Shown: positions 52,979 to 59,880 of the stretch, one piece after another
How the letters are laid out: the number at the start of each line of letters is the position of its first letter
How positions within the stretch are numbered: the first letter of the stretch is position 1
Assembly (NCBI GenBank): GCA_947385945.1
Contig: CANDMY010000006.1
Coordinates: forward strand, 1 to 64,000
DNA length: 64,000 nucleotides
Source: an uncultured Clostridia bacterium
Lineage (GTDB): Bacteria > Bacillota > Clostridia > Lachnospirales > Lachnospiraceae
Direction: 5' to 3'
Notes under the pieces: model-generated
What the model saw: the letters and a program-made list of their open reading frames with translations, nothing else
Told to the model about the DNA's origin: nothing
The model's database searches: none
Program-made: the position numbers and the translations under genes

Positions 52979-54169
52979 TTATGCTCCTGTCAAAATCACC
53001 CGTGCATATTCTGGATTGATCTCCGCCAGTTTTTTCTTCTCGGTCTCCGCCATTTCTAAAAATGCACGATTTCCTTCCATATTTTGCCGAAGCATTTTTC
53101 GGCGTCCATTTAGATCATGCCGAACTTCCACCATCTCTCTTGCATCTAACAATGCCGTAGCATATCCCACCCAAAATCTAGGCTGTTCTACCATATATTC
53201 AGTAAGAACTCCAACCACTTCCATCTCTGCTTTATGCAGCTGATCTGAGCTGGCCCGATATTTTTCCCGATTCTTCTTTTCCTCTAAATATAAACCCCAG
53301 ATAAAATTCAATTCATACGCACTGCTCACTTCATATTTGGCATACTGATACTGAATACTATTAATGATCATAACATATCGTGCCTTTACACGGTTTAAAA
53401 GCAAGATGGCTTTTTTTAGCTTTCGATCCGCCAGCCGCAGCTCTTTTGCAGCTTTTTGAAATATCAAAAAAGTAATCGTTAAAAGCACCCCGACTACTCC
53501 CAGCATAACATAAAGAAAATTTTCATAGTCTTCTTTCAGCAGTATCATACAGACCAGATAAAATACAATACTAATCCCCAACAATACGACCGACCATTCT
53601 ACTGCTTTTTTTGCAATGATTTTTTTGGAATATAATTCGTCTTTTTCATAGCGGATAGAGGTCTTCTCTGCCTCTAAATGCCGCATATCCTGTTCCAAGG
53701 TATGTGCATATTTTTCATCTTCATCTAGCTGTGCCATCATAGAACGGATTCCTTCTCCATATTCCTCCATCTTCTGATACTGCTTTTCACTAATCTTGCT
53801 TTCTGTACTTTGAAATTTTTTTCGCTCTTTATTAATCTCTTCTATCCGCATAGCGGCATCAAAAAGTTCCTGCTTATCTTTTTGTTCCATTCCTTCAATT
53901 TTCTGCACATCATTTAATATACTGCCGATTCTTCCATACTCCTCTTTCAATTCGGAAAGCTGCCGCTTAGCTGCCTGCTTCTGTTCATTTAAATGCTTGA
54001 TATATTCAAAACACTCCTCCTCACTGTTCATTCGATAGGCCTTTTGTACCTCCAGTTTGCCGTAACCGTTTTTTCCTGTTCCGTCTTCTCCTAGGTATTC
54101 CTGTATCGTCTGTTTGCCTTCTAAAGAATGTTTTTCTTTTCTCTTAAAAAGTTTTTTCCAAAATCCCAT
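52979..54169 (-). CDS. Hypothetical membrane protein (N-terminal coiled coil, two central TM helices, C-terminal coiled coil). It is the last gene of a three-gene operon.
   Basis: TM helices 'VVLLGISIVFYLVCMILL' and 'VMLGVVGVLLTITFLIF'. An 8-bp gap separates it from the upstream ORF. Confidence 0.55.
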   Translation of the reverse strand: MGFWKKLFKRKEKHSLEGKQTIQEYLGEDGTGKNGYGKLEVQKAYRMNSEEECFEYIKHLNEQKQAAKRQLSELKEEYGRIGSILNDVQKIEGMEQKDKQELFDAAMRIEEINKERKKFQSTESKISEKQYQKMEEYGEGIRSMMAQLDEDEKYAHTLEQDMRHLEAEKTSIRYEKDELYSKKIIAKKAVEWSVVLLGISIVFYLVCMILLKEDYENFLYVMLGVVGVLLTITFLIFQKAAKELRLADRKLKKAILLLNRVKARYVMIINSIQYQYAKYEVSSAYELNFIWGLYLEEKKNREKYRASSDQLHKAEMEVVGVLTEYMVEQPRFWVGYATALLDAREMVEVRHDLNGRRKMLRQNMEGNRAFLEMAETEKKKLAEINPEYARVILTGA

Positions 54170-54176
54170 ATTTTAA

Positions 54177-59300: not shown

Positions 59301-59880
59301 GCAGCATAATACGACTTTTTTTATTGACACAAACAAGGAATTCCTCCATCGCTGTATTTGGAGAAATCCCATGACATAATGCTTCATATATCGTCTGTTC
59401 TCTAGGAAGATTCGATAACAGCACTCTGGAAAACTCTGCTAAAAAAAACAGATGCAGTGCCTCTTCATAATGATTTTTTACTAAATTCGTAAAATGAAAC
59501 AGGTTTTTTATCTTTCCCATCGAGCTGTCTAAATACTTCTCTTCCACGGTTATCTCATACGGAAGTGCCAACTCCCCTGCATCCGAGACAATTTGAATCG
59601 CTCCCTTTAACTGTTTTCCCGGTTTTACTCCTTCTACCTGCACTTCATAATGAATCACCGCATGTTTTCCGATAAAGCTGCTCTCCTTTAAGATCAGATA
59701 GGCACTATCCGAATAAAGCAATCCACGAGCATCAATTCCGTTCTGACTGTCAAGGGAGAAACTTCCCAATGTCATTCCTCCGGTTGGAAGCAGAATCTGA
59801 ATTATCTCTACGGAAACTGTGAGTTCTGGAGTTGTTTTATCAAATATTCCTTTTGCCAGTTTACTGATCTTTGTCCTCAT
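56329..59880 (-). CDS. Hypothetical very large protein (about 1180 aa), largely alpha-helical/repeat-like. It is the first gene of the three-gene operon.
   Basis: Long intact ORF. Start is ATG at 59880 (MRTKISK), or GTG at 59892. No recognised domain. Confidence 0.55.
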   Translation of the reverse strand: MRTKISKLAKGIFDKTTPELTVSVEIIQILLPTGGMTLGSFSLDSQNGIDARGLLYSDSAYLILKESSFIGKHAVIHYEVQVEGVKPGKQLKGAIQIVSDAGELALPYEITVEEKYLDSSMGKIKNLFHFTNLVKNHYEEALHLFFLAEFSRVLLSNLPREQTIYEALCHGISPNTAMEEFLVCVNKKSRIMLLLEQERQEYLDFTETIGDSFVIKKDTWGYMEVEIEVDGDFIRMDRRRFTTEEFAGNSFALYYQIEESRVHAGYNFGKIYLETPYQNLEYEILVYRYTEKEKHTLEQKKGLFRLSQLYFAFRLHKITTDIWCRDSLETITRMKRLHLEDSFIQLLEVQVWITMRKTKEAAGRLAVLAEWIVPNREEEPFLYSYYLYVYTLLTRDALFARDAAAQVKELYEKHPKDDRMLWVILYLDEECAVNKSLRLARIKEQFLIGSNSSFLYYEACMVMNEMPILIRVLDLFELRTAWWGIVHGILNERAAAQIAEQALTEQRYYPLLIRILKEIYQTYQNRTALEALLSQLIRNFRMEQENFAWFQEGVQRQITMTGLYEAYMNTLPYYFYGELPKSIQLYFIYDQTLDEERKELLYSNIMMYGSENPAMLRNYLPAIEQFAEDQLRKGHISKRLARIYLGVLSSAMIDETVAEKLPAILLTKRLCCQNPKVSHVIIRHKELDCEWKLPLEQGEVYFPVFTSDCAVVFEDRQGRRFWEHTEYQIEDLIKDRKLIRECQRLSEGDIWVWLYLCEHEMIYLPEENDRMKLFKQTAAFSLLKKSYRSMIVQHILDYYLEHCEGEQLESYLDSIYKEQLEAGESIQVIELLIVRTMYEDAWEMLDSCKVEGISPNRLLRLCIYQIGQLQMAEDEMLLKACASVYRKGKYEETILEYLVQYYNNTTKEMCRLWKSAVDFEIATAELEERILVQILFTGAFVPDMEEIFSSYYRDGRSQMVKEAYLAYQSYQYFVQDMIIDEKIFQYLAREYQFQKTLLPINQMALLSWLAKKERNTEAEKKIAEQLLEVLSLNGKYFSFYQRLADRILLPFALRDKTILEYRTEPGSKVFLHYSLDTEEKEQLEYRIEKMEHIYEGIYGKQMILFYGEKLQYYISEENESGTGLTESDAVSISHWNSIGRDSRYDMLNDMCVSVEMQDEQTLAELMEQYLKKQKLVEKNSTLM

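Follow-up and report, generated by a model that had tools for sequence, protein, structure and literature searches.

A Lachnospiraceae gene module combining an Hsp70-like DUF5716 protein, a DUF5717 protein and a putative membrane anchor

Genes and protein families of the module

The 64,000-nucleotide stretch of contig CANDMY010000006.1 analysed here (the window; assembly GCA_947385945.1, an uncultured Clostridia bacterium of the Lachnospiraceae) carries three consecutive minus-strand genes, which we term gA, gB and gC. They encode a giant protein of the DUF5717 family (DUF, domain of unknown function), a DUF5716 protein with an Hsp70-like predicted fold joined to a tetratricopeptide repeat (TPR) domain, and a putative membrane anchor (Table 1). 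A first-pass annotation made from the letters alone had taken these open reading frames (ORFs) for a compact operon, and the ORF calls and spacing agree. The longest ORF of gA is 56329..59892 (-), 1187 aa from its first GTG, and the ATG at 59880 is also the start in public gene calls. In those calls gB is a 713-aa protein starting from a TTG at 56318 behind a GAGGTGG ribosome-binding site. The gA stop ends at 56329, leaving 1 nt before gB with the GTG start or 10 nt with the TTG start, and the gB stop ends at 54177, leaving 7 nt before the gC ATG at 54169. The packing is as tight as had been described, though the spacers then given, 2 bp and 8 bp, were off by one.

Compared with their orthologues in locus L004, a relative from the set described below (77–83% identical), the genes have dN/dS values of 0.11 (gA), 0.11 (gB) and 0.04 (gC). 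Because of these ratios and the many homologues of each, gA, gB and gC are real genes under purifying selection.

gA matches Pfam DUF5717_N (PF18984; E 1.7e-265, 883.5 bits, profile 1-871 of 875) and DUF5717 (PF18983; E 1.8e-99, 333.2 bits, profile 1-304 of 306), clearing both gathering thresholds of 25 bits at full-length coverage. Eight diverse gA homologues also match both models, and no second domain was found in them (Pfam, E <= 1). gB matches DUF5716_C (PF18980; E 4.5e-75, 252.8 bits, residues 123–422, profile 3-296 of 296), above the gathering threshold of 34.7 bits, together with one TPR_2 repeat (Pfam, E 5.5e-6). NCBIfam has no family for gA or gB. For gC, no family was found above threshold in Pfam or NCBIfam; a weak NCBIfam match to an SMC coiled coil (residues 48–178) was rated as coiled-coil noise. 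A word-indexed search returned 33 gC homologues, and the Pfam matches of 18 homologues at E <= 1 (DUF2207_C, YrhC and one SLATT_5) were set aside, all being driven by the transmembrane helices.

Identical proteins from a Lachnospiraceae metagenome-assembled genome (MAG) are named by NCBI 'DUF5717 family protein', 'DUF5716 family protein' and 'hypothetical protein'. The view that the operon offers no annotation handle does not hold, since gA and gB fall in DUF5717_N/DUF5717 and DUF5716_C and are named so at NCBI; the families are already catalogued and are not new to databases. The accompanying statement that no catalytic motifs are recognisable is borne out, as Pfam, NCBIfam and PDB sequence searches found no enzyme domain, in gA or in its partners, and the PDB searches (single sequences and profiles) returned only weak TPR and ferritin noise.

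Table 1. Features of the module and its immediate surroundings in the window (TPR, tetratricopeptide repeat; AF2, AlphaFold2)
Feature	Residues	Position (strand)	Remarks
nadE, glutamine-dependent NAD+ synthase		51018..52937 (-)	NCBIfam NF002730, 878 bits
gC		52979..54169 (-)	396 aa from ATG; putative membrane anchor
gC most conserved stretch	330-361	53087..53182 (-)	P..W.....A..D..EMVEVRH....RR...R
gC transmembrane hairpin	188-241	53447..53608 (-)	hydropathy segments 188–214, 216–241
gC N-terminal peptide	1-11	54137..54169 (-)	MGFWKKLFKRK; hydrophobic-basic, conserved
gB		54177..56327 (-)	716 aa from GTG; DUF5716
gB helical/TPR domain	467-716	54180..54929 (-)	AF2 helices 467–714; TPR repeats recognised
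gB β-sandwich, position of Hsp70 substrate-binding domain β	302-421	55065..55424 (-)	AF2 model
gB Hsp70/actin-fold nucleotide-binding domain	1-300	55428..56327 (-)	AF2 model; degenerate phosphate loops
gA		56329..59880 (-)	1183 aa, DUF5717; ATG at 59880 behind AGGTGG ribosome-binding site
gA β-sandwich 3, α-solenoid 2 and β-sandwich 4	667-1131	56488..57882 (-)	AF2 model
gA α-solenoid 1, TPR-like	294–665	57886..59001 (-)	AF2 model
gA β-sandwich 1, helical insert and β-sandwich 2	20-288	59017..59823 (-)	
gA β-sandwich 1	20–124		AF2 model
gA conserved helical insert	127–184		AF2 model; motif NLFHFTNL
gA β-sandwich 2	193–288		AF2 model
gA β-sandwich 3	667–731		AF2 model
gA α-solenoid 2	739–1043		AF2 model
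gA β-sandwich 4	1056–1131		AF2 model; motif FYGExLQYY
gA terminal helices	1143–1183		AF2 model
Promoter-like site		59952..59981 (-)	TTGCCG-18-TATAAT with TG extended −10; consensus scan, 10/12 matches

Predicted folds and sequence motifs

Based on the AF2 model of gB (predicted local distance difference test, pLDDT, 86; predicted template modelling score, pTM, 0.72), the protein is predicted to carry an Hsp70-type nucleotide-binding domain, a substrate-binding β domain and, after a linker modelled with low confidence near residues 431–440, a helical domain. When the model was compared with the PDB by Foldseek, the top 50 matches were all Hsp70 structures, which ranked above ParM. Forty-seven of them include the nucleotide-binding domain together with the substrate-binding domain (E down to 2e-17, probability 1.0), drawn from DnaK, Hsc70, BiP, mortalin, Ssb, Sse1 and Ssz1; the other three are two DnaK nucleotide-binding domains alone and one Hop–Hsp70 chain. 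Ssz1 with its bound pseudo-substrate (6sr6) is among the 50. Because the two-domain alignments span 520–716 columns, against roughly 380 residues for a nucleotide-binding domain, both Hsp70 domains are matched. Alignments with full-length DnaK, Hsc70, BiP and Ssz1 run to 520–690 columns. The first-pass annotation, which had left the 716-aa protein uncharacterised, missed this recognisable fold; its TPR-like C-terminus was read correctly, as the TPR_2 match and the helical domain of the model indicate. In structure comparison the TPR part resembles the TPR domains of Hsp70/Hsp90 co-chaperones, among them HOP, Sti1, Sec72 and Cns1.

Sequence comparison gives a different picture. gB has no match to Pfam HSP70 (PF00012) at E <= 0.1, and neither phmmer nor hmmsearch, run with its sequence or profile, found an Hsp70 in the PDB. 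Aligned by hhalign with the E. coli DnaK sequence, the gB profile placed the first 72 residues in the expected register at a probability of 1.3%. A profile of the N-terminal part, searched against 1.84 billion representative proteins, described a closed family (1780 matches at E <= 1e-3, 1196 at E <= 1e-10) with no bridge to canonical Hsp70s. Homology between gB and Hsp70 is therefore not demonstrable at the sequence level.

The active-site positions are likewise mixed. Over 75 members of the gB family, G11 (74/75), D13 (72/75), E158 (74/75), D/E180 (74/75) and G251 (75/75) are kept, and these include the equivalents of DnaK D8, E171 and D194 and of the G-x-G (G251-x-G253) of the adenosine motif. 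A linker-like PxS(I/L)G segment is retained in the family as well, and a conserved DLGFG motif lies at residues 402-406. Not conserved over the same members are the equivalents of the phosphate-1 residues T11/T12 (here D/N/E), the GGG phosphate-2 loop and the K70 equivalent; gB lacks the intact set of Hsp70 ATPase motifs (phosphate-1 GTT, phosphate-2 DxGGGT, catalytic Lys70). The helical lid of Hsp70 (substrate-binding domain α) is also missing, the C-terminal half of gB being TPR-like. We conclude that gB is, as modelled, Hsp70-like in fold and domain order while standing outside the Hsp70 family by sequence and by ATPase motif. Since the phosphate loops and K70 are lost, no Pfam HSP70 match exists and the family is closed, gB is probably no longer a cycling ATPase.

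It could be argued instead that the module is a working, specialised Hsp70 machine in which gB binds and hydrolyses ATP, its TPR part and gA act as co-chaperones or select clients, and gC positions the whole at the membrane so that particular membrane or secreted proteins are folded, held or inserted. The Hsp70-like arrangement of the two N-terminal domains, the conservation of D13, E158, D/E180 and G251-x-G253, and the resemblance of the TPR part to those of co-chaperones would all fit, but that resemblance is generic, and the phosphate-1 threonines, the phosphate-2 glycine loop and the K70 equivalent are not conserved. Nor was a cognate DnaJ (J-domain) or GrpE gene found in the module or in the recurrent flanking clusters, as judged from Pfam searches of the three module proteins and from our own reading of flanking-cluster representatives.

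The AF2 model of gA (pLDDT 87, pTM 0.58) comprises four β-sandwiches, which appear PapD/MSP/ASH-like in fold, and two TPR-like α-solenoids. The description of the largest protein as helical and repeat-like had captured the solenoids and overlooked the sandwiches. Resemblance of the sandwiches to MSP, PapD and ASH domains lies at the level of fold only, at about 5–16% identity, and sandwiches 1 and 2 are the sole pair with detectable mutual sequence similarity (hhalign probability 71%). In a per-domain comparison, conservation was even along the length of gA, with peaks at the helical insert and the last sandwich. No hydrophobic segment of gA or gB is strong enough for a transmembrane helix or signal peptide (KD19 below 1.6). 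Both proteins are therefore taken to be cytoplasmic, and we propose that gA is a cytoplasmic multi-domain scaffold.

In gC, by comparison, two hydrophobic segments form the hairpin, which agrees with the two transmembrane helices first assigned to the 396-aa protein; there are none in gA or gB. The helices are joined by a 6-residue loop, KEDYEN, and flanked by the K/R-rich segments KKIIAKK and KAAKELRLADRKLKK. Because both flanks are rich in K/R, the positive-inside rule would place both termini of gC in the cytoplasm. The N-terminal region is charged and coiled-coil-like. It begins with a peptide of the pattern M-x-Φ-Φ-x-x-Φ-Φ-K-K/R-K, whose M-x-hydrophobic-hydrophobic start recurs in 71 of 72 homologues, the most distant about 28% identical; in 64 of the 72, three or more K/R fall within the first 14 residues. 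This peptide may serve for docking or may lie in the plane of the membrane as a helix. Beyond the hairpin, our own alignment and the 72 locus-derived homologues revealed the most conserved stretch of the protein, with near-invariant columns at P330, W333, A339, D342, E345-M-V-E-(V/I)-R-H351, R356-R357 and R361.

The actin-like core of gB raises the question of a cytoskeleton-like polymer, formed by gB in the manner of ParM or by the MSP-like domains of gA, and assembled on gC. The gA sandwiches do resemble the MSP/ASH domains of cytoskeletal assemblies, and a coiled-coil membrane anchor recalls organisers of the MreC and EzrA type. However, that resemblance of gA is one of fold only, Hsp70s outrank ParM in the comparisons with gB, the gB alignments extend over a substrate-binding-like domain that actin-like polymers lack, and the nucleotide-binding loops that dynamic actin-like filaments need are degenerate. 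We consider such a polymer improbable.

Distribution, genomic context and regulation

In a peptide-pattern scan of one genome per species, relatives of gA were found in at least 562 genomes, of which the best 80 matches were studied as loci; there the module has one conserved form. These 80 are labelled mostly Lachnospiraceae, with Butyrivibrio, Roseburia, Agathobacter, Lachnospira, Acetatifactor, Kineothrix, Suilimivivens and Ca. Galacturonibacter among the genera given by MAG or isolate labels. A taxonomy check placed three cultured species in the Lachnospiraceae: Kineothrix alysoides and Suilimivivens aceti, both found by the scan, and Anaerosacchariphilus polymeriproducens, returned by a homologue search. 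Five loci (L058, L059, L063, L068 and L071) carry the Lachnospiraceae module in bins labelled Odoribacter splanchnicus, Bacteroidales, Bacteroides, Bacteroidaceae and Muribaculaceae. The copies are near-identical to a Lachnospiraceae version, in three of the five bins the C-terminus of gA is exactly that of an Acetatifactor MAG (L073), and all five are probably mis-binned contigs.

Linkage was assessed by running profiles from our own alignments against the six-frame ORFs of all loci, 73 of which have enough downstream sequence. gA, gB and gC occur in the same order and on the same strand in 71 of the 73, spanning 6.6–7.2 kb, so that the co-conservation check that the first-pass annotation had called for gives a strongly positive answer. 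In 70 of the 71 complete loci gB is two adjacent genes, one of about 420 aa (Hsp70-like) and one of about 280 aa (TPR). Among the loci examined, fusion is confined to the genus of the window (L001–L004). In the search against 1.84 billion proteins, fused forms (708–737 aa) make up about 5% of the top matches; all cover the whole profile, and the nearest relatives of each are split. At least six or seven independent fusion lineages follow from this, because the nearest relatives of the fused forms are split. That the Hsp70-like and TPR parts have been joined repeatedly, and in the same order, is good evidence for a physical cooperation between them.

The neighbourhood of the module is far less constant. 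In the window, nadE, which the first-pass annotation had placed after the operon, follows gC after 41 nt with no terminator-like site or hairpin in the gap; it is possibly co-transcribed with the module, outside whose conserved extent it lies. This adjacency is limited to L001–L003, L004 being without it. The upstream xerD and nudF named in the same annotation were recovered as a tyrosine recombinase (323 bits, just under the XerD equivalog cut-off of 329.6 and above the tyrosine-recombinase subfamily cut-off) and a NUDIX hydrolase (Pfam/NCBIfam). The gene named spoIIM is present too, encoding a 191-aa membrane protein (60897..61472 (-)), but the assignment falls below threshold (14.7 bits against a Pfam SpoIIM gathering score of 26.9; no NCBIfam model), and the label is uncertain. 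Only L001–L004 share the xerD, SpoIIM-like, NUDIX, proC and aminotransferase neighbours. Elsewhere the module is flanked by other housekeeping genes: purB, purF or purC lies downstream in 20–34 loci, a divergent aminotransferase gene lies upstream in 22, and htpG is found in 17, rarA in 12, valS in 8 and clpB in 8. Each of these associations is restricted to a single clade of related gA sequences, a pattern that looks like inherited synteny and makes it unlikely that htpG, clpB, rarA or the pur genes are functionally linked to the module.

The 107-nt gap between xerD and gA holds the promoter-like site of Table 1. In 40 of 74 loci an extended −10 element (TGnTAYAMT) of sigma-A type lies in the 200 nt before gA, compared with 1.6 of 74 expected from shuffles and 2/74 in a coding control. 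A search of the 250 nt preceding gA in 72 loci revealed neither a CIRCE (HrcA) site, even with 5 mismatches tolerated, nor a CtsR repeat. From these sequence features the module is probably expressed in growing cells; it is chromosomal and vertically inherited. By a crude rule that takes the first start codon behind a ribosome-binding site, the start codon of gA is GTG in 33 loci, TTG in 22 and ATG in 19, and many gA starts (e.g. L018-L035) are preceded by a GTGGTGAG-type ribosome-binding site. The non-ATG starts may point to low or regulated translation.

These data bear on the chaperone alternative introduced above. Where htpG or clpB is present, it lies within 1.5–3.3 kb upstream, which could be seen as a chaperone setting, but the proximity tracks clades, and no CIRCE or CtsR operator was found in front of gA. 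We regard an actively cycling Hsp70 machine as unlikely, if worth keeping in mind.

They also bear on the suggestion that the operon belongs to a sporulation- or envelope-specific system driven by sporulation sigma factors and acting at the forespore or septal membrane. Many Lachnospiraceae form spores, the operon of the window lies near xerD and the weakly SpoIIM-like gene, gC is a membrane protein, and a SpoIID/peptidoglycan-binding-like gene (by our reading of a representative sequence) lies upstream in 18 loci. Against this, the xerD, spoIIM-like and nadE adjacency is found only in the closest relatives, the SpoIIM match is sub-threshold, and the sigma-A-type element just described lies upstream in about half of the loci. 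The module is moreover present in MAGs labelled Butyrivibrio, Roseburia, Agathobacter and Lachnospira, genera classically described as non-spore-forming, and neither gA nor gB offers a hydrophobic segment of signal-peptide or transmembrane grade. The sporulation association first suggested is therefore not upheld, and the envelope part of the proposal survives for the membrane anchor gC but not for the other two proteins, taken as cytoplasmic. Taken as a whole, we consider this explanation improbable.

A mobile-element origin was also examined and rejected, as there is no plasmid match and the one 'phage' record inspected is bacterial chromosome. gA is absent from 72,556 plasmids, occurs in 2 of 2.9 million IMG/VR contigs (both times at contig ends) and matches four unverified 'Bacteriophage sp.' metagenome records. 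One of these records (MT835486.1, 'UNVERIFIED: Bacteriophage sp.', 66.8 kb; L084) carries the whole module. It is collinear with a Butyrivibrio MAG (L017), with flanking proteins 93–99% identical, and is bacterial chromosomal DNA filed as phage.

A role in phage defence or other conflict might be suggested by analogy with the CoCoNuT proteins CnuD and CnuCD, in which Hsp70-like nucleotide-binding and substrate-binding domains are combined with HEAT-like repeats within type IV restriction systems (PMC11090510). Like CnuD, gB joins a degenerate Hsp70-like unit to a helical-repeat domain, and does so both fused and as separate, adjacent proteins (PMC11090510); the two-helix hairpin of gC is also of a kind seen in some effectors. 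What defines CnuD, however, is its occurrence in defence loci together with genes for McrB-like GTPases and McrC-like proteins, whereas the module lacks such genes, has a housekeeping context and is vertically inherited. In the three module proteins, Pfam and NCBIfam recognised neither McrB/McrC nor nuclease nor other effector domains, and no PADLOC model rose above noise (PADLOC-DB 2.0: gC, E 0.012-0.018; gA and gB, none). A stable core-genome position with clade-wise synteny and strong purifying selection, absence from plasmids and effective absence from phages, and the presence in at least 562 species genomes, in a single form in the 80 loci studied, are equally at odds with a conflict system, and we think a defence role very improbable.

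Several features of the window lie apart from the module. An 812-aa protein encoded at 2304..4742 (-) resembles major vault protein (Pfam MVP_shoulder E 1e-22, Vault_3 repeat E 6.6e-7) and adjoins a 595-aa actin-fold protein (5140..6927 (-); PilM_2, FtsA and MreB matches). At 17512..20280 (-), a 922-aa ORF combines an FtsW/RodA/SpoVE (SEDS) part with a penicillin-binding transpeptidase, a fused glycosyltransferase-transpeptidase. A tmRNA at 33080..33445 has a tRNA as its neighbour. Strand bias is extreme, with nearly every long ORF on the minus strand, and over 1..64000 the GC skew in 2-kb windows is about -0.1 to -0.46 except in the 4-kb stretch 44001..48000.

A proposed membrane-tethered complex

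Because the proteins combine interaction domains, a membrane hairpin, lost ATPase features, strict co-inheritance and repeated fusion, we infer that the module encodes a stable, membrane-tethered, non-enzymatic protein-interaction complex with gB as clamp or adaptor, and we give this reading about an even chance of being right. The three gene products (four in most species) would be subunits of one vertically inherited, vegetatively expressed complex held at the cytoplasmic face of the membrane. gC would insert as a hairpin and present its coiled-coil arm, N-terminal peptide and C-terminal helical motif to the cytoplasm. gB, whose lid has given way to a TPR module (encoded separately in most species), would act as a permanent clamp or adaptor and not as a cycling chaperone. 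Its β domain may hold a peptide of a partner, for which the gC N-terminus is the best candidate; a hydrophobic-basic composition like that of this N-terminus is a classical Hsp70-binding motif. gA, as the putative scaffold, would offer a platform of four β-sandwiches and two solenoids that recruits further clients.

The closest parallel is the ribosome-associated complex Ssz1–Zuo1 of fungi, in which an atypical, non-hydrolysing Hsp70 is a permanent structural subunit. Ssz1, like gB, has nucleotide-binding and substrate-binding β domains, no canonical lid and degenerate ATPase features, and its substrate-binding domain is occupied by a pseudo-substrate segment from its partner (6sr6), the same mechanism that we propose for the gB clamp. 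The likeness has clear limits. gB has no detectable sequence relationship to Ssz1 (10–13% identity), and the module has neither a J-domain partner nor a link to the ribosome; it is bacterial, found in one family, and its partners are a TPR protein, the 1183-aa gA and a membrane hairpin protein. With DnaK and other Hsp70s, gB shares the order of nucleotide-binding domain, linker and substrate-binding β domain (Foldseek E 2e-17, probability 1.0, about 550–690 columns) as well as the equivalents of D8, E171 and D194, but it differs from the DnaK/DnaJ/GrpE system in carrying a TPR domain where the lid and C-terminal tail would be, in the loss of the phosphate loops and K70, and in the lack of DnaJ, GrpE or a CIRCE element at the module.

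A second parallel concerns the membrane partner. In type IV pili, the actin-fold protein PilM docks on the N-terminal cytoplasmic peptide of PilN, a coiled-coil membrane protein. The pairing of a soluble gB of ASKHA fold with a membrane-anchored coiled-coil gC bearing a conserved N-terminal peptide is similar in outline. gB nevertheless has neither a PilM_2 nor an FtsA match in Pfam and includes a substrate-binding domain of Hsp70 type, the surroundings contain no pilus genes, and gC has a hairpin where PilN has a single transmembrane helix. For gA, the ASH/MSP/PapD-like scaffolds (Hydin, CFAP65/74, FAP47/81, CEP192, VAP proteins and fimbrial chaperones) provide a likeness of fold only. The eukaryotic ones are ciliary or centrosomal and PapD is periplasmic, whereas gA is cytoplasmic with sandwiches alternating with TPR-like solenoids.

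Several points weigh against the complex proposed here. Two related Lachnospiraceae MAGs (L036, 9968..17528, and L042, 308..8216) have a full-length gA with no adjacent gB or gC, gA being directly followed by purC/purB/purF; the partners there are lost or moved, and gA is able to persist without them next to it. The acidic residues that coordinate Mg-ATP (D13, E158 and D/E180) are kept in gB, which may thus still bind nucleotide, even slow hydrolysis being compatible with its sequence. The domain assignments of gA and gB come from AF2 models rather than solved structures, and for gA the pTM of just 0.58 makes the relative placement of the domains uncertain. Finally, the word scaffold is argued in part from the absence of enzyme motifs.

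A further step, which we put forward more tentatively as one possibility among others, would see the module as a lineage-defining machine of the Lachnospiraceae. In that case a catalytically dead Hsp70 would be a permanent structural part of a membrane-bound cytoplasmic super-scaffold, clamping the N-terminal peptide of the anchor, as in the fungal ribosome-associated complex, and holding the gA platform, which might organise growth of the envelope, cell division or the handling of membrane proteins.

Full-text literature searches found no relevant publication that mentions the DUF5716 or DUF5717 names or their Pfam accessions. Four things appear to be undescribed: the view of the DUF5716 protein as an Hsp70-like and TPR unit, the way in which DUF5717 is divided into domains, the gC family as a defined group, and the four-component module as a Lachnospiraceae-wide unit. 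The whole would amount to a system of Hsp70 fold with unprecedented partners and a decayed ATPase.

In summary, we have delineated a module that makes up about 7 kb of core genome in the Lachnospiraceae, a family that ranks among the most abundant bacteria in the guts of humans and ruminants. The DUF5716 family takes in only part of what is a two-gene unit, and the gC family is now defined by its hairpin anchor, its N-terminal hydrophobic-basic peptide and the EMVE(V/I)RH…RR motif. The reading of gB given here provides a concrete, testable model and, if it is true, the module would be a case of a bacterial Hsp70 fold used as a fixed structural clamp.

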